Virus record (IMG/VR): IMGVR_UViG_2974557979_000001 | Strand: one strand, 5' to 3' | Length of the DNA stretch: 64,000 nt | From: a virus | Taxonomy: Duplodnaviria > Heunggongvirae > Uroviricota > Caudoviricetes > Straboviridae | Shown here: one piece after another, positions 3,251 to 56,735 of the stretch | Layout: every line of letters starts with the position of its first letter | Position numbering within the stretch: position 1 is the first letter of the stretch | Notes under the pieces: model-generated | Database searches by the model: none | What the model was told of the DNA's origin: nothing | Seen by the model: only the letters and a program-made list of their open reading frames with translations | Translations under genes and position numbers: made by a program

Positions 3251-3327
3251 GGCCCCTTAGCTCAATAGGTAGAGCTAATCACTCATAATGGTTAGGTTCC
3301 CGGTTCAAGTCACGGGAGGGGCCACCA
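3251..3327 (+). tRNA. tRNA with anticodon CAU (Met or lysidine-Ile)
   Basis: Cloverleaf: acceptor GGCCCCT/AGGGGCC, D arm GCTC/GAGC, anticodon stem AATCA/TGGTT, loop CTCATAA, T loop TTCAAGT, ends CCA; the T stem needs one bulged A. Confidence 0.7.
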
Positions 3328-4890: not shown

Positions 4891-5253
4891 ATGAAAGCAT
4901 TTCAAATTTTAGAAGGTTTGCATACGGGTACAATCTATCTGGAAGAAGGTAACGACGTTCGGATCGTAGTATCAAAAACATTAACTATGGATTCTGTGAT
5001 CGGTAAAGCTCGCGTTACTCCGTTTGCAAAGCGAGAGATCGAGATCGAATATCAGCCAACTGTTAAAGTGGAAGGTGGACAACATCTAAACGTTAACGTG
5101 TTGCGCCGCGAAACTCTCCTGGATGCTGTTGAACATCCTGAAAAATATCCGCAGTTAACGATCCGTGTTTCTGGTTATGCAGTGCGTTTTAACTCACTGA
5201 CCCCTGAACAGCAACGCGACGTTATCGCCCGAACCTTTACAGAGAGTCTATAA
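4891..5253 (+). CDS. grcA: autonomous glycyl radical cofactor (GrcA/YfiD-like)
   Basis: C-terminus [61 protein letters not shown] matches the E. coli GrcA glycine-radical domain almost exactly; T4 is known to carry a YfiD homolog. Confidence 0.85.
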
Positions 5254-5522
5254 TGGCAATTGATGATATCAAGGGTTATAAACCCCATACTGATAAAAAA
5301 GTAGAAACGGTAAACCGTATCAAAGATGCTGAAAATGCATTAGGTGCAATCCTGGAAGATATCGAACAGCGACTATCAAATTCAGATATTGATTCACTGA
5401 TAGAGGAAGAATTAGATGAGGTGCTTGAACGTATCCATCAAATTCAACTAGCGAAAGACCGACTGAAAGAAGCCTCTATGTGGGCGTGTCGTGCGGTGTT
5501 TCAGCCTGACGAAAAGTATTAA
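5253..5522 (+). CDS. hypothetical protein
   Basis: ORF overlapping the upstream stop (ATGA). Confidence 0.45.
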   Translation: MAIDDIKGYKPHTDKKVETVNRIKDAENALGAILEDIEQRLSNSDIDSLIEEELDEVLERIHQIQLAKDRLKEASMWACRAVFQPDEKY

Positions 5523-5527
5523 AAATC

Positions 5528-5556
5528 AAGCCGTTGCCGAAAGGTAGCGGCTTTTT
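5528..5556 (+). terminator. rho-independent terminator
   Basis: AAGCCG...CGGCTT stem followed by a T-run. Confidence 0.6.
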
Positions 5557-5577
5557 TCGTTTTTACATAAAAAGTTG

Positions 5578-5606
5578 TTGACTCCCTTCGCACATTCCCT
5601 TATAGT
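5578..5606 (+). promoter_or_regulatory. sigma70-type early promoter
   Basis: TTGACT, 17 bp spacer, TATAGT. Confidence 0.6.
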
Positions 5607-5647
5607 TAATCCCGTAGACAAGAAAACACTTTTATGAGGATGACATT

Positions 5648-5941
5648 ATGAAACGCTCTTACAACATGAATGAACTGGTTTTCTTCAAAACTCGTCGTGA
5701 AGCACGTGCTTACGTTCTGGCGGCTGGTAAAAATACTTCTGCTGCTATCGATATGGGTACTGATAAAGCTGTTGGTGCTCGTTGGGCCGCTGTTATCGTT
5801 ATCGCTGCTCCGGTTACTCCGGTTAAAACTCTGGTACTTGGTGCGCGTCACGCCGAAACTCTTAACACCGCTGCAAGCGGTAGGGGCCACGAAGTTAAAG
5901 TGTTCAAGAAGCGTTCTTATCTTTCATGTGCAAGGGGTTAA
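5648..5941 (+). CDS. hypothetical small basic Ala-rich protein, probably highly expressed
   Basis: RBS GAGGA; codon usage dominated by GCT/GGT/CGT/ACT/CTG/GTT, as in highly expressed enterobacterial genes; a strong promoter lies immediately upstream. Confidence 0.55.
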   Translation: MKRSYNMNELVFFKTRREARAYVLAAGKNTSAAIDMGTDKAVGARWAAVIVIAAPVTPVKTLVLGARHAETLNTAASGRGHEVKVFKKRSYLSCARG

Positions 5942-6183
5942 CTATGGCACGATTCATATATAAAGTGGAATACGAAAATACTGAGTTATCTGATACCTTT
6001 TTGAAGATGATTCGTGATCACGGGCAACGTCTGGAAAGAGTAACGATTGATACTGCTTTTGATTGTCCTGTTGGGTTGGTTCTGACATTATCTTGCAGCC
6101 CCGCAAAAGAATCAGCCCGTGTAGAAATGTTACATAAACTAAATGCATTTTATGAAGGTGGTAGTGTATGGCGAGTATTGTAA
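5926..6183 (+). CDS. hypothetical protein
   Basis: ORF overlapping the upstream stop. Confidence 0.4.
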   Translation: MCKGLTMARFIYKVEYENTELSDTFLKMIRDHGQRLERVTIDTAFDCPVGLVLTLSCSPAKESARVEMLHKLNAFYEGGSVWRVL

Positions 6184-6405
6184 AATTTTTCACCGACTCA
6201 GTGAAAGAAATTAAAAGCGCTCTGGAACAATGGAACACTCGCTGTGATGTATCCATTAAATCAGAGTACGAAACAACTTATGATCGTTATGATCCGGCCC
6301 GTGGTTTGCACAATAACCCCCATGAGGTGGAAGTGTGATTGATATCGAAACAAATAACGTGATTCTTGTCATAGTATCTTTTATGTTGGGATACTGGGCC
6401 GCATC

Positions 6406-6558
6406 ATGAAATACTACGGATTCAAAACGAGTCATTTTGGTAAAGCGTATCGCACAGAAAACATCGATCGCAAACGTCCGTACTATGATTCGTTAGTACG
6501 AGCGGGACGTAAACGCGCTCGCCAGGAAGGGAAGAAAGAGGGTGAAGATCGTGGATAA
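6406..6558 (+). CDS. small basic hypothetical protein (50 aa)
   Basis: ATG ORF under the track cutoff; Arg/Lys-rich. Confidence 0.3.
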   Translation: MKYYGFKTSHFGKAYRTENIDRKRPYYDSLVRAGRKRARQEGKKEGEDRG

Positions 6559-6641
6559 CTGGAAAACATGGATATCAATTATCGTTGGTGTTATCATCGG
6601 ACGCGGTTTGTATGATTTAATCTTTTCAATAGGGGTTAACT

Positions 6642-7082
6642 ATGGACATTGGTTCGGGTAGTCAGTACCCATCATGCGCGTTAAGCAACTTCGCTCCGCA
6701 TCCGTTTACGTTTGACGGGGTAGAATGTGCATCAATGGAGGGCTTTTTGCAAAGCCTGAAATTTAGCAACCCAGATATGCAAGCCCATGTATGTACTCTG
6801 GTAGGCAAGGCCGCAAAGTTCAAAGGCAAAAAGAAAAAATGGTGGACTAACCAGACCTTATACTGGAAAGGTATCCCTATTCATCGTTCCTCTGAGGCGT
6901 ATCAAATCCTGATTGAAAACGCATATAATGCGTTATTCCTTAATGAAGGGTTTCGCCGTGCGCTGGCAGCAACCGGAAAAAGTACCTTGACACATTCAAT
7001 GGGAAAGAATAAAATAAATGAAACTGTACTGACTGAAAGAGAGTTTGTACGCAACTTAACCCGATTGAGAGATCTGTTATGA
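6642..7082 (+). CDS. NADAR (YbiA-like) domain protein, candidate ADP-ribose N-glycosidase
   Basis: LSNFAPHPFTFDGVECASMEGFLQSLKF matches the NADAR/DUF1768 N-terminal signature (SNF...F..DG....ScEhYFQAQKF). Confidence 0.72.
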   Translation: MDIGSGSQYPSCALSNFAPHPFTFDGVECASMEGFLQSLKFSNPDMQAHVCTLVGKAAKFKGKKKKWWTNQTLYWKGIPIHRSSEAYQILIENAYNALFLNEGFRRALAATGKSTLTHSMGKNKINETVLTEREFVRNLTRLRDLL

Positions 7083-7342
7083 GTGAAAAAGAAAGAGTAG
7101 AATGCGTGTTTCTGTTCAAAGGCGCGATTAATCCATTAGCGTTACTGTATGCGCAACATGCATTACGTTCAACGTTGATTCAGAGTGTTATCTATAAAGC
7201 AGGTGTGTATTATGTTACCATCGGCGCAAATAACATGGTTGTTATTGAATCCTACGTTAAGGAATGTGCATTAAACGGCGTTGTCTTTGATAAAGTCGAT
7301 TTTGATGCTGGGGTAGATGCTGTTTATATGTATAAGGGTTGA
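7079..7342 (+). CDS. hypothetical protein
   Basis: ORF overlapping the upstream stop. Confidence 0.4.
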   Translation: MSEKERVECVFLFKGAINPLALLYAQHALRSTLIQSVIYKAGVYYVTIGANNMVVIESYVKECALNGVVFDKVDFDAGVDAVYMYKG

Positions 7343-7343
7343 T

Positions 7344-7565
7344 ATGAGTTACGTAGTTTATTTTGATTGTTCGGATCTCGATCCGTTCGTTCTTCAACAG
7401 GCAAAGAAATATCATCAGGATGTCGTTGGCATTGGTGTAACAAATGATGATATGTTGTGCATCGAATTTGAATATTATCGGACATTTGAGCGTGATTATT
7501 TCCTGGGTGAATTGAACGCATTCAAAAGTACCCTTTTCTTTGATCGTTATGAGGTTATATCTTGA
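7344..7565 (+). CDS. hypothetical protein
   Basis: Internal Met chosen (MSYVVYFD). Confidence 0.4.
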   Translation: MSYVVYFDCSDLDPFVLQQAKKYHQDVVGIGVTNDDMLCIEFEYYRTFERDYFLGELNAFKSTLFFDRYEVIS

Positions 7566-8176
7566 AACCTGTTATTCTTACCGATATTGACGGGATCGCC
7601 GTAAAATGGCAAAGCGGCCTCCCGTTCTTTTTGTCTAAGCACAACATGCCTACTGATATTGCATTAGAAATGGTTACAGATGAAAAATTTCGTGATATGA
7701 CCGAAATCTTCGGATGTGATCAGCAGTTGGCTAAAATCCTTATGGAAGAATACAATAACAGTTCTTTCATTCGTTATCTGAATGCGTATGATGATGCATT
7801 GATTGTGATCAACCGTCTGAAAACGCAGTATGATTTCGTTGCCGTTACCGCTCTGGGAACAACACCAACGGCAAGCCTTAACCGAATTGCTAACCTGAAT
7901 ACTCTTTTCCCGTCTGCGTTTAAAGAGGTGATGGTCGTGGGCCACGGTGAAACAAAAACTCATCGTTACCTGGAAGCAAAAGCAAAGTATGGTAATCGTC
8001 TGGTTTGCTTTGTTGATGATCTCGCGATAAACTTAAACGAATGTCATAACGTCATTAGTCAATTGCCGTTATTCCATATGTTACGTGGTGAACGTGAAGA
8101 AACAAATGCACCTCACCAGTTAGTAAAATCGTGGTTTGAAATTGAAGAGAAACTAAATGATCTTGTCAATCCTTAA
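7562..8176 (+). CDS. HAD-like hydrolase (putative)
   Basis: N-terminal ILTDIDGIAV resembles HAD motif I (DxDx[TV]); TTG start overlapping the upstream stop. Confidence 0.45.
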   Translation: MKPVILTDIDGIAVKWQSGLPFFLSKHNMPTDIALEMVTDEKFRDMTEIFGCDQQLAKILMEEYNNSSFIRYLNAYDDALIVINRLKTQYDFVAVTALGTTPTASLNRIANLNTLFPSAFKEVMVVGHGETKTHRYLEAKAKYGNRLVCFVDDLAINLNECHNVISQLPLFHMLRGEREETNAPHQLVKSWFEIEEKLNDLVNP

Positions 8177-9686
8177 TGAACTTGCGTCTACTCTGAAAAC
8201 CAAAGAGAAAGAAGCAATTTTAAAACGTAATGCCGATAATGAATTATTGAAAGAAGTTTTCCGCATTACGTATACAAAACAGATTATGTTTTATGTGCGT
8301 CAATTTCCTCTGGTAGAAGGGAAACCAGGCACAACACCGCTTTCCGATGCAATCAAAGCATTACTGGAAGATTTAGCAAGCCGGAAATATACAGGCAATG
8401 CAGCGCGTGATCGTTTACTGGATATTGTATCATCAGTGAACATTAACGATCGTGAAGTGCTACGCCGTATCATTAACCGCGATCTGGAATGTGGTGCTGG
8501 CACAACCTTACCAAACAGGGTATGGAAGAAACTCATTCCTGAACAGCCTCAATGCCTCGCTACGCCGTTTAGTGAAAAGGCTTTACGTCGCATCATTTTC
8601 CCTGCTTACTCGCAGCTTAAAGCCGATGGTGCGCGTTGCATGGCTGATTTGCTGGAAGCATTAAACCGTAAGGTATCGAGAGCGGGTAACGAGTACGAAG
8701 GGTTAACTCAGCTTGATATCGATCTGAAAAAGATTCGCGATTATCTGGGATATGATGTAGTTCTGGATGGAGAATTGATTTATGTTCCTTCCGGAACCGT
8801 ACCAACATTACCTGAACCTGAAACAGACATGCCTTTTTCTTTATCTGCTTTCATGGACGATGATGATAACGACATTGCGTTATTTGCGGAAGAAGTTCGC
8901 AAAGTATCGACCCCAGAAGAAGAACAGGCCGAAGCAAAACGCGAAGAAGGGAACGGGATCGTAAACAAATCTCTGAAAGGGACGATCACCGAAGAAGAAC
9001 AGCGAAACATTGTTTATGTTGTTTGGGATATTATTCCATATGAGGTGTATTACGGCGAAGCTGAAAGTGTTCAGACTTATGATGAGCGGTTTAGCCTGTT
9101 GCGTGATATCCTCCTGGATCTTTCTCTGCCTTCTGTTCGTTTGATTCAGTCTAAGCTGGTTAATAACATTGCAGAAGCGAAGCAGGACTATAACAATTAC
9201 CGCAATGACGGTAAAGAAGGTTCTATTCTCAAAAACAGAAACTTCAAATGGAAAGATTCGCGAGTAGCCGATCAGGTTAAGCTGAAAAACAAAACCCCGA
9301 TTGAACTACGGATCATTGATATCTACGCGCACACTAAAGAAGACCATAAGGTCGGCGGGTTTGTGGTGGAAGATTTATCCGGAATGGCTCGAACGAATAC
9401 CGGATCTGGGTTAACTGATACCGATTATCGTTACGATGATGATGGTATTACCCGTGTATACATTCCATTAGATGAACGTGGTGAACTGGATCGCGAATAC
9501 ATCATGGCGCATAAAGATGAATACATTGGGGCCATTGTAGAAATGGAAGTTGACGGCCTCCAGAAGTCGAAAACGCGTAAGAAAGGGGAACCGGAATACA
9601 GTTTCTTCCTTCCTATTATCAAGAAGATAAGACGCGATAAGACCGAACCCGACGATATTCATATTGTCTTTGCAGATCTATTTTAA
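8157..9686 (+). CDS. 30: ATP-dependent DNA ligase gp30
   Basis: Collinear with T4 DNA ligase as I recall it: MILSILNEL..., KADGARC adenylation motif, NGIVNKSLKG, LDGELIY. Confidence 0.93.
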   Translation: MILSILNELASTLKTKEKEAILKRNADNELLKEVFRITYTKQIMFYVRQFPLVEGKPGTTPLSDAIKALLEDLASRKYTGNAARDRLLDIVSSVNINDREVLRRIINRDLECGAGTTLPNRVWKKLIPEQPQCLATPFSEKALRRIIFPAYSQLKADGARCMADLLEALNRKVSRAGNEYEGLTQLDIDLKKIRDYLGYDVVLDGELIYVPSGTVPTLPEPETDMPFSLSAFMDDDDNDIALFAEEVRKVSTPEEEQAEAKREEGNGIVNKSLKGTITEEEQRNIVYVVWDIIPYEVYYGEAESVQTYDERFSLLRDILLDLSLPSVRLIQSKLVNNIAEAKQDYNNYRNDGKEGSILKNRNFKWKDSRVADQVKLKNKTPIELRIIDIYAHTKEDHKVGGFVVEDLSGMARTNTGSGLTDTDYRYDDDGITRVYIPLDERGELDREYIMAHKDEYIGAIVEMEVDGLQKSKTRKKGEPEYSFFLPIIKKIRRDKTEPDDIHIVFADLF

Positions 9687-9687
9687 T

Positions 9688-9759
9688 AAAAAGCCCTTGA
9701 CTCCGGTCGGGGCTTTGTTATATTGCATATCGAAACGTAAATCACTAAGAGAATATATT
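9688..9759 (+). promoter_or_regulatory. terminator-hairpin/early-promoter/leader cassette (PeSL-like)
   Basis: Hairpin AAAGCCC-TTGACTCCGGTC-GGGGCTTT with TTGACT inside, 17 bp spacer, TATATT, then leader gcATATCGAAACg. Confidence 0.55.
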
Positions 9760-10329
9760 ATGACTAGTAGTTATCAGAAACACAAAACCCTTATGGCAAA
9801 CCTGTCCGGTAAACATATCGACGAAGTAAAATCTCTGCTGACAGTGACCGAAGGTTCCCGATTCGAAACAAATCACATTATCAAACCTTCTGTGAAGAAA
9901 GTACTGAAAGTGATTTACCGACATCCGGTGTATCAGTGCGTTCATATCATGAACAGCAACGCATTTATTTTCGTATATAACGAATCCGATGATAAGTGTG
10001 TTGGTATTTTCCGAAAACCTAACTTTGAATGCATGAGCGAAGCGGCTGTTGCAACCCCGATCGTTGAAGAATATCCGGATTATGTTCAACGCAACATGCG
10101 TTATGTGCAATCCCGACTTGATTATGCATACGATTTCAATTCTGACGCGGTAGAAGCGCTGGCGGATATCCTTTGCAAAAACCAGAAAGATCGTCAAATG
10201 ACAAAATATCTGACTGATCCAACACCGCCAACAATTCGAATTTCTGTTGAAGTTCCGTTTGAAAATCATTTCATGGCAGTTGAAGCGCTTGCTAAACTTG
10301 GTTTAGAAGTGAAAACAGAAGCCGTTTAA
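9760..10329 (+). CDS. hypothetical protein
   Basis: Start set to MTSSYQ downstream of the cassette. Confidence 0.5.
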   Translation: MTSSYQKHKTLMANLSGKHIDEVKSLLTVTEGSRFETNHIIKPSVKKVLKVIYRHPVYQCVHIMNSNAFIFVYNESDDKCVGIFRKPNFECMSEAAVATPIVEEYPDYVQRNMRYVQSRLDYAYDFNSDAVEALADILCKNQKDRQMTKYLTDPTPPTIRISVEVPFENHFMAVEALAKLGLEVKTEAV

Positions 10330-51652: not shown

Positions 51653-52036
51653 TTATGCCTTTGGTTTCACACCGTAGGCCAACATACCGAAACGGTGATC
51701 GTTGTCTGCATCTTTAAACAGAACTTCGTTACCATCAATGCAGATAACCTTTGCTTCCGGATCGATGTATGGAAGCAACCACAAAGGGATCAGGCGTAGG
51801 CCGCTATGTTCATCCCAGCGACTGAAATTAAGTTCTTCCAGTTCATCAAGGGAAAGCTCATTAGGATCGATATAACGGAACCATTTGGTATTTTTGAGGC
51901 GTTCGGGGAATGTTACGATTTCTTCATAGCCGAATTCAGCACTCCATGAAGAGTAAACAGTGACTTCGGATGCTTTGGTTAAAACAGCATCGCGAATTGA
52001 TTTGCAGATATCGATTAAATTCAGTTGATTTTCCAT
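51653..52036 (-). CDS. hypothetical protein
   Basis: ORF. Confidence 0.45.
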   Translation of the reverse strand: MENQLNLIDICKSIRDAVLTKASEVTVYSSWSAEFGYEEIVTFPERLKNTKWFRYIDPNELSLDELEELNFSRWDEHSGLRLIPLWLLPYIDPEAKVICIDGNEVLFKDADNDHRFGMLAYGVKPKA

Positions 52037-52046
52037 GATATATTTC

Positions 52047-52454
52047 TCATCTTGCTAAAATTTTAGGCAACAGTTGCCCCATTGTTTTACGTGCATGTGA
52101 CGGAATCTGTGAGATCGGGACATATTTAAAATCATCCATTTCACGTATAGTCCGTCCGTTCTTAACGAAAGTTGATGCACAATAGCATTCTTCCGCTACT
52201 GGGTAATCTTGCCCTACATAGAGGAATAAAGCAAGGTTTTTTGTTTTCGTGTAATCGAGAACACCCAGACTAACCAATTCCTCCGCGAACACTTCAAATC
52301 CTGTTTCTTCGAAGCATTCGCGGATCGCCGCGTCAATATGAGTTTCGCCCTTTTCAACATGCCCCTTCGGAATATCCCAATGGGGCGTTTCAGTGGCATG
52401 GCCCATCAACACGGCACCATCTTTAACAAAGATAATACCCGCTGATAGTTCCAT
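52047..52454 (-). CDS. Nudix hydrolase
   Basis: Nudix box GHVEKGETHIDAAIRECFEETG. Confidence 0.8.
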   Translation of the reverse strand: MELSAGIIFVKDGAVLMGHATETPHWDIPKGHVEKGETHIDAAIRECFEETGFEVFAEELVSLGVLDYTKTKNLALFLYVGQDYPVAEECYCASTFVKNGRTIREMDDFKYVPISQIPSHARKTMGQLLPKILAR

Positions 52455-52700
52455 TTATTCACCTGCAAAAGCGTTATCAAATGCTTTAAGTGCGTTGTTA
52501 GCGCGAGCACTGGCTTTTGTCTCACCAGCATGAATGTTTTCGAAGAAAGTACGTTTCCACACTTCGCGGCGAATAGATTCATGTTCCAGACTGTTTTTGT
52601 GATCACTGCGAATCTGTTCTTCCATGTTGTAGCGGTACAGATCGAGTTCTGCGTTTAATTTCTGTTCTAATGCCTGTGCAAATACATGTTCAATATTCAT
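52455..52700 (-). CDS. hypothetical protein
   Basis: ORF. Confidence 0.4.
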   Translation of the reverse strand: MNIEHVFAQALEQKLNAELDLYRYNMEEQIRSDHKNSLEHESIRREVWKRTFFENIHAGETKASARANNALKAFDNAFAGE

Positions 52701-52948
52701 TTTGTATAGCCTATTTCAGATTTAAGGTTTTCGAGGGTGGAGTGATAAACAACACTCCCTTCGTGTCGAGTATACCATACTTTTCCGTTCTGGTTACACT
52801 CATTCATTACATTTTCATCTAAACCAGGGATCGGCTTCATGCTGGGAGAAAACGCGATAGACATCATTTGTTCTGCGCTATCAGCAAACCCACAAGGGAA
52901 AACAGATCCAGTTGGTTTATCAAGATACATCAACTCTACTTTAGCCAT
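52697..52948 (-). CDS. hypothetical protein
   Basis: Start set to MAKVELMYL. Confidence 0.4.
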   Translation of the reverse strand: MAKVELMYLDKPTGSVFPCGFADSAEQMMSIAFSPSMKPIPGLDENVMNECNQNGKVWYTRHEGSVVYHSTLENLKSEIGYTK

Positions 52949-53234
52949 AGATTTCTTCGAAATCCTCACAATCAGGCAAATACGTTTCACAGAAGGTGCA
53001 AAGCGTAAAGAATGCAGGTTGACGAATACCAGGATTATCCGGTAGATACATCCAGAAGGTGTTAGCAAACACGATGAATGTTTTCAGGTTTTCGGTGGTA
53101 ATTTCGCTAACACCATCATACCCGGATTGATTGATCGCGCGTTGCAGTGGCACCTCGTACTGTTCGCAATAGTCGGCATAATGATCGCTTGTTACAAGGC
53201 CATTAGCCATTTTAATCAAATCGACGATTTTCAT
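52941..53234 (-). CDS. hypothetical protein
   Basis: ORF. Confidence 0.45.
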   Translation of the reverse strand: MKIVDLIKMANGLVTSDHYADYCEQYEVPLQRAINQSGYDGVSEITTENLKTFIVFANTFWMYLPDNPGIRQPAFFTLCTFCETYLPDCEDFEEIYG

Positions 53235-53566
53235 GATTTTACATATTCCACTTTAACAGGTTTTGCAACAAATTTATCTTTGGTGCGCCCATGACCATTA
53301 CACAGGTCACATTCTTTGTTGAAATCTTTCATATCTTCGACCCATCCAGAATCTGGCAACCCAGACGGATATGCGTTATAACGAATGGTTTCATAACCTT
53401 TTCCGTTGCATTTCGGGCAAACATGAGGACGTTCTTTTTTAGCAGACTCTGCCAGTTCGCGAAGGGTGGTAGAACTACCATAAGCCCGACACATGTTTTC
53501 AAAGTCTTTTAAAGTCATTCTATAAACATCAATGACGTTATATTTTTTGCCGGATGGTTTAGCCAT
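53231..53566 (-). CDS. DnaJ-type zinc-finger protein (CxxCxGxG x2)
   Basis: CPKCNGKG ... CDLCNGHG; start set to MAKPSGKK. Confidence 0.45.
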   Translation of the reverse strand: MAKPSGKKYNVIDVYRMTLKDFENMCRAYGSSTTLRELAESAKKERPHVCPKCNGKGYETIRYNAYPSGLPDSGWVEDMKDFNKECDLCNGHGRTKDKFVAKPVKVEYVKS

Positions 53567-53806
53567 AATATATTTCTCACTTAAAGAATTTTTTGATGAA
53601 AGAGATAGCAAGGCCGATACCAAAGAAAATTAAGTAACCTTTTCCGTCACCGTGCGCCAAAACATAGAGTGAGCTGCCGTATGCGATGAGTTCTGCGATG
53701 TTCATTAAGTTTCTCATGATATCCTCCTTTTTCTATATTAAGTATCTTACCATAATATAAACCAAAGTCAACAACAAAGTTTTATCAACCCACTTATCAC
53801 CAGTCA

Positions 53807-53947
53807 TTAGTAATCCCCTACAGGTTGAGACGCCGCAACACTCAGGATCTTGAAAGTGCAATTGTTCCATTCACAATAAGTTTTTGCGCAATGAACACTT
53901 CCTTTCATAACAAACCCGTTTGAGAAAATTAACCAGTAAAGTTTCAT
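53807..53947 (-). CDS. small hydrophobic protein (46 aa)
   Basis: Start MKLYWLIF after RBS GGAGG; the track ORF includes translated leader. Confidence 0.3.
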   Translation of the reverse strand: MKLYWLIFSNGFVMKGSVHCAKTYCEWNNCTFKILSVAASQPVGDY

Positions 53948-54012
53948 GATAGCCTCCTTTGTTTCGACAAGGCCAATATAACAAAGCCCCTGCACGAATG
54001 CAAGGGCTTTTT
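53948..54012 (-). promoter_or_regulatory. PeSL cassette (minus strand)
   Basis: Minus strand GAAAAAAGCCCTTGCATTCGTGCAGGGGCTTTGTTATATTGGCCTTGTCGAAACAAAGGAGG. Confidence 0.55.
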
Positions 54013-54552
54013 TCAGTTTTTCAACATCCAAAGTTGCGGAGGACAATCTTTAGAAGCGATTAGACGATCCAGGCGGGACATAACCCGACGATAACCGTCG
54101 TATTCAAAATTAATTTTTGGTGGAACGTAGTTGACCTGGATTGTTTTTCTGTTAGCTAAAGAAACATACTCAGGGATCACCGTTCGTAACCGTATAGCGA
54201 TCACTGGCTTCTCTTCGCCTTCGTTAAAGAACATTTGAACAGTTATAGGACAAGCAAAGATTTTACCATTTACCCGACGATAAACAATAACTTCCTGTGT
54301 CCCTTCTGTTTTGGCCTTCACAGCGTAGGTTAGAACATAACACGAATAATGATTTGCTAGACTCATCATGATATCGCGATAAGTTTCAATATCTTTTTTA
54401 ATCGATACTGAACGGTCTTTAAAGCGATCTGAAATGTGGTCAGCAGTAGCCGCTACCTTGATTGTATACCAGTCACCTAACGCGCTAGTAAACGCCTCGC
54501 TAACTTCTTTTCGTACACTGTTAACAAGATACATTAAACGTGTTCTGTTCAT
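54013..54552 (-). CDS. hypothetical protein
   Basis: Start set to MNRTRLMYLV. Confidence 0.45.
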   Translation of the reverse strand: MNRTRLMYLVNSVRKEVSEAFTSALGDWYTIKVAATADHISDRFKDRSVSIKKDIETYRDIMMSLANHYSCYVLTYAVKAKTEGTQEVIVYRRVNGKIFACPITVQMFFNEGEEKPVIAIRLRTVIPEYVSLANRKTIQVNYVPPKINFEYDGYRRVMSRLDRLIASKDCPPQLWMLKN

Positions 54553-54559
54553 ATAATCC

Positions 54560-55183
54560 TCACTGATTTTTGAAGTATTCGATCTGACGCAAACGCTTTT
54601 CAGCGGCGGCTTTCGAATCGTATTCACCAAGTTCTTTTGTGCGATCGTGATTCAAAACAACCCACTTATCGCCACGCTGTTCAATGTGTTCTGTAATATC
54701 TTTTAACGACTTATCCAGATCCAGTGATTCAGCCTCTTCACAGATAATAGTCAAATCCACGGGCAGTGTCAACAACCTTTTCACTCCGCTGATATCATCA
54801 AGCATCGAATCGTATGCAAGGGTTACGTGCGGCTTGTAATCCGGATAATCGTATGTTGCGCCAGCATCAATAGAATCTTTGAAACGGCTATGCAGGTATT
54901 CAGATTCCAGGATCCCTACAATAGTGCTACCGTATTTTGTGTCCCACTTTTCAACATCAACCAGTTTAGCAGGTTCTGTGATGTCCTGTTGCGGGAACAA
55001 ATCAACCGTTTTCCGGCTGTATACGATCGTTGTATGCATCTTTTCGGCTGAAACAGCATTCTTTGTGATACCTAATGTCTTTTGAACATTTTTCAAAGCC
55101 TCACATGAAGCCTGATCGAATTTAGCACACATGTAGATACCAGGATCTACAACAGGTTTTGTGATTTCAAGAAATGATTTCAT
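54560..55183 (-). CDS. 57B: 2H phosphoesterase (Acb1/57B-like; LigT superfamily)
   Basis: Two H-x-T-x motifs (HTTIVYS and HVTLAYD) about 70 aa apart; gene sits next to 57A and gene 1 exactly as T4 57B/acb1 does. Confidence 0.6.
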   Translation of the reverse strand: MKSFLEITKPVVDPGIYMCAKFDQASCEALKNVQKTLGITKNAVSAEKMHTTIVYSRKTVDLFPQQDITEPAKLVDVEKWDTKYGSTIVGILESEYLHSRFKDSIDAGATYDYPDYKPHVTLAYDSMLDDISGVKRLLTLPVDLTIICEEAESLDLDKSLKDITEHIEQRGDKWVVLNHDRTKELGEYDSKAAAEKRLRQIEYFKNQ

Positions 55184-55234
55184 AAAACACCCCAATAAAA
55201 AAGGGGCCGTAGCCCCTTTGTAATAAATTTGTTT

Positions 55235-55507
55235 TTACGCTTCTTCGCCAAAGGCGGCTTCATCTTCCGCGACTTTTTCGACTTCAACGGAAGGGATCAG
55301 AGCGGATACCGCGCCAATTACCGCTTCTGGGGTTACTGGCTGGCTTGCGTCAATACCCAGTACCGAACACAGGTCGGACAGAAGTTGACGATGAACAGAG
55401 AGTTCACTTTCTTTTTGCGCGATAACTTCGTTCAGATCGAATGCGCGGCCTTTCAGTACCAGTACTTCATTTTGCAGTTTTTGAATATCAGACATTTTAT
55501 TACCCAT
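55235..55507 (-). CDS. 57A: gp57A-like chaperone (coiled coil)
   Basis: Small acidic coiled-coil protein in the 57A position between 57B and gene 1; the start could be 55507 or 55495. Confidence 0.5.
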   Translation of the reverse strand: MGNKMSDIQKLQNEVLVLKGRAFDLNEVIAQKESELSVHRQLLSDLCSVLGIDASQPVTPEAVIGAVSALIPSVEVEKVAEDEAAFGEEA

Positions 55508-55509
55508 TG

Positions 55510-56205
55510 TTAAAATTTAAAAGTATCGAGCACTTTGCTCTTTAGTTGTTTCAAAGTACCTTCGTTAGTGATGATACTATCTCCAGGTTGAGGTGTCAAA
55601 CCTTTTTCCGTGGAATGTTCATCAACAATTCCGGTATCCTTTACAATAAACACAAACTTAGCACCTAAGCGTTTTAGGTATTTGTATTCGTGTTCTTGAC
55701 GACAGTCAGTGACCAGAAGATGGTTGTATTCGTCACCAGTATATTTATTGACGAATCTTTCCAGTGTGTAACGAACCCAAACCGTGTTATCATACTTGCA
55801 TACGATATCAGTTCCAAACACTTGCATCAAGCGTCTGATACTCCAGGGAGTATCGTTACTCATAATCAGGTTATCAATATCATCAGGACTATAGACAATA
55901 TTGTATCCACGTTCTTTGAGGATTTCAAGCCCGATTTTGAAAATATTTAGAACATCTTCATTAGACATCACAAGAGGTTTCTCTCGATCGCCTTTGTAAA
56001 AAATAGCATCCGGATCAGAATATTGTCCTTCAATCATATTGCGAATGTATGGTTTATCGTAACCATATCGCTGCATTGCTATTCTTAGCGTTCTTTTGAT
56101 ACCAAATGCCAGTGCTTCACACTGAACATCATTGTACGCCTCTTGAATAAATTTAGCAACCGTATCTTTACCAGTTCGCTTTTTTCCACTAATCACATAA
56201 ATCAT
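55510..56205 (-). CDS. 1: deoxynucleoside monophosphate kinase gp1
   Basis: P-loop ISGKKRTGKDT, SIRRLMQVFGTDI, VTDCRQEHE, ITNEGTL are collinear with T4 gp1. Confidence 0.9.
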   Translation of the reverse strand: MIYVISGKKRTGKDTVAKFIQEAYNDVQCEALAFGIKRTLRIAMQRYGYDKPYIRNMIEGQYSDPDAIFYKGDREKPLVMSNEDVLNIFKIGLEILKERGYNIVYSPDDIDNLIMSNDTPWSIRRLMQVFGTDIVCKYDNTVWVRYTLERFVNKYTGDEYNHLLVTDCRQEHEYKYLKRLGAKFVFIVKDTGIVDEHSTEKGLTPQPGDSIITNEGTLKQLKSKVLDTFKF

Positions 56206-56735
56206 TAGCTCATTCTCTTTTGAGAAGTGACTACTTTTCCGTCAATTTCAACTTCCATATGAAGGAAGCCAAAAGTTGCCATACACGTAACCGCTTCATC
56301 ACTATCGTTAGTATAACCCAATTCAACCTCACCCAAGTTTGTTGGGAAGGCACCATAAAATCTAAATGTGGCGATCGTTTTCATCTGGGAGTTATCCAGG
56401 ATATGCACAGCGAATGATTGCTTAGGATCATCCCACGCAACAGAGTTAAACTCATTGTAATCGTTTGTGCTCAACATCCATATGTAAATCCCAAGATACG
56501 ATCTCATTTCCTCATCGACTACAAAGCGGATCATCAAAGGATCAAACTCAAAAGCCGAACCAGGTACTTTACCTCGAACCATCATATTTGCAGGAATATC
56601 AACTGCTGGGAGGTTCATTGATGGTAGTGTAACCCCTTGAACTTGTAAAGTCAAACCTTTCATGTAACTGTTATCAGGAATATCAACCCGAAAGTTTGTA
56701 GGTGAGATTTGGTTTAAAATCATTTCTGTAGACAT
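56205..56735 (-). CDS. 3: tail completion/sheath stabiliser gp3-like
   Basis: 176 aa (same length as T4 gp3), located after gene 1 as in T4; CTAAATAG late-promoter-like motif upstream. Confidence 0.55.
   Translation of the reverse strand: MSTEMILNQISPTNFRVDIPDNSYMKGLTLQVQGVTLPSMNLPAVDIPANMMVRGKVPGSAFEFDPLMIRFVVDEEMRSYLGIYIWMLSTNDYNEFNSVAWDDPKQSFAVHILDNSQMKTIATFRFYGAFPTNLGEVELGYTNDSDEAVTCMATFGFLHMEVEIDGKVVTSQKRMS

Follow-up and report, generated by a model that had tools for sequence, protein, structure and literature searches.

The locus and its gene

The window analysed here is a stretch of 64,000 nucleotides of viral DNA (IMG/VR record IMGVR_UViG_2974557979_000001), and its source is Klebsiella phage Matisse (Straboviridae, Slopekvirus); positions 5000-10000 of the window are 100% identical to positions 51702-56702 of KT001918.1/NC_028750.1. 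Within it we followed up a gene of 146 codons, running from an ATG start to a TGA stop, whose bounds (Table 1) are exactly those first described and whose product, CPT_Matisse89 (AKU44393.1), is deposited as a "hypothetical protein". Judged by its sequence, this protein is a further member, at 42% identity, of the characterised T4 gp30.3/AdfN family. More precisely, Slopekvirus quite probably has in it the orthologue of T4 gp30.3 (AdfN): a phage NADAR of one minimal domain that, by analogy with T4, would remove ADP-ribose from guanine and act in counter-defence.

Clearly, this is a genuine and conserved gene. By tblastn it is contained in 1508 phage records, 112 of them at least 95% identical and mostly from Klebsiella, Enterobacter and Citrobacter phages, and proteins of the Matisse gp30.3 type make up 4809 protein clusters at 90% identity and 1169 representatives at 50% identity; a blastn search of complete E. 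coli genomes gave no match. The Matisse record annotates a ribosome-binding site at the equivalent of the Shine-Dalgarno-like sequence (its locus 7634-7637 being window 6633-6636). At the other end, the stop codon overlaps the start of the next open reading frame (7079..7342), an arrangement that suggests translational coupling and a single transcription unit.

The family assignment is carried by both sequence and position. The protein matches the Pfam model PF08010 Phage_30_3 ("Bacteriophage protein GP30.3") from position 2 to position 138 of the 138 in the profile (E=1.3e-55; 187.4 bits, the cutoff being 36) as well as the PHROG family phrog_652 (E=2.5e-53), and BLASTP aligns its residues 1-146 with residues 4-152 of the 152-residue T4 gp30.3 (NC_000866) at 42% identity (E=2e-35). 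The T4 gene order 30.3, 30.2, 30 is kept in Matisse, with two small open reading frames inserted between 30.3 and 30.2 and no 30.1; by position, therefore, the Matisse gene is orthologous to T4 gene 30.3. Both genes lie upstream of 30.2 and the ligase, and the two proteins are alike in their PF08010 membership, in size, in a minimal NADAR core that lacks extensions and in their intact C-terminal helix. They also differ: Matisse is a Slopekvirus with a Klebsiella host, outside the Tevenvirinae, and its gene has no same-strand internal open reading frame of at least 40 residues comparable to T4 30.3'. The 'phage NADAR' family is reportedly that of Schuller et al. 2023, and it is also that of the 2024 study in Toxins discussed below.

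The earlier note, made from the letters alone, had taken the product for a NADAR-domain protein and a candidate guanine de-ADP-ribosylase. The core of this proposal is borne out by the NADAR fold described below and by the guanine specificity of T4 gp30.3/AdfN (PMC11825919, PMC11125620), whereas the precise and already characterised family (Phage_30_3, T4 gene 30.3, AdfN) had gone unrecognised. In fact, the family, its fold, catalytic residues, substrate and role were all published between 2023 and 2026, and the Matisse protein adds nothing unexpected to them.

Table 1. Window coordinates of the gene, its functional elements and its surroundings
Feature	Position	Strand	Basis or remark
Coding sequence of the putative AdfN-type NADAR, CPT_Matisse89 / AKU44393.1	6642..7082	+	146 residues plus stop; open reading frame list, Pfam, BLASTP, record annotation
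Shine-Dalgarno-like AGGGGT	6631..6636	+	read from the sequence; 5-10 nucleotides 5' of the ATG
Conserved N-terminal NADAR core motif, residues 14-41 (LSNF...EGFLQSLKF)	6681..6764	+	hhalign alignment to YbiA residues 29-56
E33, codon GAG	6738..6740	+	equals T4 AdfN E36, PnNADAR E43, YbiA E48; Glu in 56/58
K40, codon AAA	6759..6761	+	equals T4 AdfN K43, PnNADAR K50, YbiA K55; Lys in 57/58
H118, codon CAT, last strand (TLTHSMG)	6993..6995	+	His in 56/58; equals T4 H123
C-terminal alpha-helix, residues 132-145, intact	7035..7076	+	AlphaFold2 secondary structure; alignment to the T4 C-terminus
ATGA stop/start overlap with the next open reading frame	7079..7082	+	sequence, open reading frame list
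gp30.2 homologue, 204 residues	7562..8176	+	synteny anchor; blastp 47% identity over residues 1-198, E=9e-66
ATP-dependent DNA ligase, T4 gp30 homologue	8157..9686	+	synteny anchor; blastp 39% identity, E=9e-106; Pfam PF01068
Terminator-like hairpin	5528-5553		precedes the promoter-like site at 5578-5606
Sigma70-like promoter	5578-5606		follows the terminator-like hairpin
Terminator after the ligase	9695-9712		

Fold and functional residues of the Matisse protein

An AlphaFold2 model of the protein, built on a 29-sequence alignment, reached a mean predicted local distance difference test score (pLDDT) of 89.5 and a predicted template modelling score (pTM) of 0.86, and shows a YbiA-like fold, in which small sheets flank a helical core. 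Profile comparison leads to the same fold: in hhalign, a profile built from 58 diverse representatives of the family matches E. coli YbiA at a probability of 95.2% (E=2.9e-8). The fold search and hhalign were needed because direct sequence searches of the PDB, with the protein or a shallow profile as query, returned no NADAR chain, and a more diverse profile recovered YbiA only marginally, at E=0.0047.

The conserved N-terminal core motif, which is the very peptide quoted in the earlier note, includes the glutamate and the lysine that contact ADP-ribose (E33 and K40). Around them, L14, S15, N16, E33, G34, L36, Q37 and K40 are each conserved in at least 90% of the 58 diverse representatives. 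The residue in the last strand defines the NADAR subfamily, being His in phage proteins (gp30.3), Glu in the YbiA type and Asp in the DarG1 type (PMC11125620, PMC11543638). In Matisse this residue is H118; the hhalign alignment stops one residue earlier, at T117 paired with YbiA V124, which places H118 at YbiA E125. E33, K40 and H118 all have their identical counterparts in T4 AdfN.

On the C-terminal side the family conserves G121, T128, L130, T131, E134 and F135, and the terminal helix is present in Matisse. In RB69 this helix has been frameshifted away and the phage is DarTG1-sensitive, and removal of the helix lowers the activity of T4 AdfN (PMC11825919). Truncation is rare in the family: a single one of 80 loci (L022) encodes a shortened protein, of 136 residues. 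An RB69-like truncation was also considered for close relatives whose tblastn match ends at residue 136, and it was rejected, as five of the six translated loci hold full-length open reading frames of 146 residues; the short matches are thus alignment artefacts. The C-terminal D-x-x-W-G motif of YbiA is absent from the corresponding Matisse segment HSMGKNKINETVLTEREF, the hhalign alignment ending before the YbiA motif. The Matisse protein further differs from YbiA by an extra beta-hairpin insertion at residues ~72-81.

A Lys-rich loop (KFKGKKKKWW, residues 59-68, 6816..6845) is modelled at lower confidence, with a pLDDT of ~67-77. Its sequence hardly varies within the Slopekvirus/Karamvirus-type subclade, whereas T4 has AQQAGRSYARAQ in its place, and it is possible that the loop makes a DNA-backbone contact that differs between subclades.

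Some relatives depart from the single-domain plan. In the library of 50% representatives, a protein of 480 residues (P0129) carries tandem gp30.3-type NADAR modules, with three matched stretches, and C-terminal fusions are found among P0163, P0171, P0196 and P0172, to LGT (prolipoprotein diacylglyceryl transferase), a BspA-type leucine-rich repeat, an FtsW/RodA-like membrane domain and a weak match to the D-Ala-D-Ala ligase C-terminus. Unless they are gene-call fusions, these architectures suggest that 'phage' NADARs also include proteins of cells or of unusual multidomain build. As a possible link to ADP-ribose metabolism, the fusion partners proved uninformative.

A probable counter-defence role and its alternatives

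T4 gene 30.3 was renamed adfN, for anti-DarT factor NADAR, as the determinant of T-even DarTG1 resistance (Johannesman et al. 2025, PMC11825919). According to this study AdfN is both necessary and sufficient for DarTG1 resistance in T-even infection, the purified protein strips from DNA the ADP-ribose installed by DarT1 and it does not bind DarT1, while DarTG2, which acts on thymidine, is unaffected (PMC11825919). T4 E36 and K43 contact ADP-ribose, their substitution by Ala weakens counter-defence and E36A served as the inactive control in vitro (PMC11825919). A 2024 study in Toxins found that phage NADAR hydrolyses guanosine-linked but not thymidine-linked ADP-ribose in vitro and lacks antitoxin activity in vivo (PMC11125620); its construct "T4 gp30.3" is given as residues 1-208, whereas gp30.3 of NC_000866 has 152 residues. 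Cytidine-linked ADP-ribose is removed neither by T4 phage NADAR nor by DarG1 NADARs (2026 study, PMC12945103).

These results bear directly on how the function should be probed. The earlier note had NADARs reversing DarT2-type ADP-ribosylation of guanosine; guanosine as the target and the counteraction of DarT toxins both stand, but the toxin concerned is DarT1. DarT2 modifies thymidine, and no NADAR tested, T4's included, reverses thymidine-ADP-ribose or DarTG2 defence (PMC11825919, PMC11125620), so that a DarT2 co-expression assay would show no rescue whatever the function of the protein. Nor is it sound to read absence of rescue upon DarT co-expression as a refutation, as had been suggested: T4 AdfN is active in vitro and in infection and yet, in two independent studies, fails to rescue (PMC11825919, PMC11125620). 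Uninfected cells are in fact not relieved of DarT1 toxicity by it, and phages outside the T-even group are hardly rescued (PMC11825919). As the extra phage factor that T4 AdfN seems to require, gp30.2 or another neighbour was considered and was rejected as an obligate partner: among 80 viral loci, just 9 have a 30.2 homologue within 4 kb. The commonest neighbour family is found in no more than 13 of them, and thus the nearby genes examined give no clue to this factor.

The published biochemistry and genetics of the T4 homologue point to enzymatic activity, guanine specificity and a counter-defence role for the Matisse protein as well. By this analogy, its most likely activity is to hydrolyse, during infection, the bond between ribose and guanine in ADP-ribosylated DNA of the phage and so to neutralise a DarT1-type defence. 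The gene would be expressed with the early/replication-gene block, and its product would bind ADP-ribose on guanines of phage DNA, a mark set by DarT1-type ADP-ribosyltransferases. The N-glycosidic bond between ribose and base would then be hydrolysed with the help of E33 and K40, as the ADP-ribose contacts, and of H118, at the last-strand catalytic position. Unmodified DNA would be restored in this way and replication could continue in hosts equipped with a DarTG1-like defence. CPT_Matisse89, and with it the almost identical genes found in over 100 records of Klebsiella, Enterobacter and Citrobacter phages, now "hypothetical protein", could then be relabelled as AdfN-type anti-DarTG1 NADARs, which would be useful when therapeutic Klebsiella phages are chosen against DarTG1-carrying strains and would help catalogues of anti-defence genes.

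Other NADARs connected to DarT are set up differently. In contrast to the DarG1 NADARs (BC4488 family; for example those of E. coli C7 and Geobacter lovleyi, PDB 8bat), the Matisse gene is an orphan, its neighbours being small phage open reading frames, the gp30.2 homologue and the ligase, with no DarT1 toxin gene adjoining. Its product, 146 residues of core only, does without the basic DNA-binding extension that DarG1 has at its N-terminus, and has His where DarG1 has Asp at the last-strand catalytic position; moreover, the phage NADAR of T4 cannot replace the DarG1 antitoxin in uninfected cells. AdfN-Bas32 and AdfN-Bas60, which were acquired independently, are phage-encoded orphan NADARs with anti-DarTG1 activity, a description that would also fit the Matisse gene. 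Yet they belong to archaeal-like and bacterial stand-alone branches and work without phage context, while the Matisse protein sits in the gp30.3 branch.

Several observations weigh against a straightforward transfer from T4. Identity to the one characterised member is only 42%. The generic NADAR model PF08719 stays below its gathering score (15.1 bits against 35.1, E=0.027); PF08010 and PF08719 are separate Pfam models whose homology is seen only by profile-profile comparison, so that it is the fold and such a comparison of profiles that tie the protein to DarG1-type NADARs. Scanning with PADLOC's DarG-like models yielded no DarG-type match, only a weak one to the candidate model PDC-M42C (E=0.005). 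T4 AdfN is fully effective only in Tevenvirinae infection (PMC11825919), and since Matisse lies outside this group, it is uncertain whether the in vivo role carries over. Our literature search yielded nothing usable on DarTG1 prevalence in Klebsiella, and found no study of a Klebsiella or Slopekvirus AdfN nor activity data for any Slopekvirus homologue.

A rather unlikely alternative is that the protein is an active NADAR hydrolase with another substrate in Klebsiella infection, be it guanine-ADP-ribosylated RNA or DNA modified by a different ADP-ribosyltransferase of the host, such as a pierisin/ScARP-like, a YarT-like or an undiscovered defence enzyme. The authors of the T4 study themselves suggest that phage NADARs might be directed at further ADP-ribosylating defences still to be discovered (PMC11825919), and the distance from T4 AdfN (42% identity) and a genomic context that varies across phages, with no neighbour kept in more than 13 of 80 loci, would fit this view. 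Against it, DarTG1 counter-defence is the sole in vivo phenotype known for the family, and the catalytic constellation with its last-strand His is the same as in T4. It is also improbable, on our estimate, that the Slopekvirus gp30.3 branch has diverged from T4 in its target or context, acting autonomously or against a Klebsiella ADP-ribosyltransferase defence other than E. coli DarT1. This idea stems from the same 42% identity and from the subclade-conserved Lys-rich loop; if it were true, comparison with T4 AdfN could reveal the basis of its T-even dependence.

Two further readings are very unlikely, namely that the Matisse gene, like the frameshifted RB69 allele, is a relic that has degenerated or lost its activity, and that its product, rather than serving in counter-defence, modulates ADP-ribosyltransferases of the phage itself (Alt/ModA/ModB-type). 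Natural inactive alleles do exist, as RB69 and the single cut-down member among the 80 viral loci (L022, 136 residues) illustrate, and T4 gene 30.3 lies ~3 kb from alt. However, the Matisse reading frame has its full length and retains every key residue as well as the terminal helix, and its identity of at least 95% across more than 100 Klebsiella phage records is consistent with a maintained function. A homologue of Alt, or of T4 AdfA (gp61.2), was not found in the 64-kb window, the remaining Matisse genome being outside this search.

Least credible of all is the riboflavin alternative raised by the earlier note, a YbiA-type N-glycosidase that destroys reactive intermediates of riboflavin biosynthesis: the equivalog-domain model for this activity, TIGR02464, reaches 17.8 bits where its cutoff is 73.7, and matches residues 11-49 only, PF08719 is likewise below its cutoff, Glu125 of YbiA (PDB 2b3w) is His in Matisse, the YbiA segment D130-x-x-W133-G is left unaligned, and YbiA is a housekeeping gene while this family is phage-borne, with a T4 member that works on DNA during infection and just one distant phage NADAR near the YbiA group (PMC11825919).

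Transcription signals and neighbouring genes

The sigma70-like promoter upstream of the gene, together with the terminator-like hairpin before it and the terminator after the ligase (Table 1), weakly suggests that the gene belongs to one early transcription unit, promoter-like matches being no commoner here than in shuffled sequence. The best sigma70-like match of the region (6987..7015, +; TTGACA-17-TAAAAT, 11/12) lies inside the coding sequence, ~65 nucleotides short of the stop codon; transcription of the small open reading frames downstream, of 30.2 and of the ligase could start from it.

The gp30.2 homologue starts at a TTG codon and lacks the C-terminal ~80 residues of T4 gp30.2. It has no Pfam match at E<=0.01 and carries an N-terminal HAD-like DxDG motif (LTDIDGIAV); in phage KLB10 it bears the label 'HAD protein'.

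At 1.1 kb upstream of the AdfN-type gene lies CPT_Matisse84 (5253..5522, +, 89 residues), another "hypothetical protein". It matches the Acb2/Tad1 hairpin domain PF24729 of Pfam (E=3.4e-17, 62.8 bits against a cutoff of 27), and is probably an Acb2-type cyclic-nucleotide sponge (anti-CBASS). Two putative anti-defence genes would thus lie within ~1.8 kb on the plus strand, separated by the hairpin and the promoter-like site at 5578-5606. Just upstream of the Acb2-like gene, an open reading frame of 120 residues (4891..5253, +) encodes a GrcA-like autonomous glycyl-radical cofactor (Pfam PF01228, E=4e-18) that ends in ...RTFTESL; its annotation says no more than 'contains glycine radical domain'. 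Further upstream, ARAGORN places a tRNA-Met (CAT) at 3251..3327 on the plus strand, whereas the Matisse GenBank record has tRNA-Met on the minus strand, which looks like an error in the deposited annotation.
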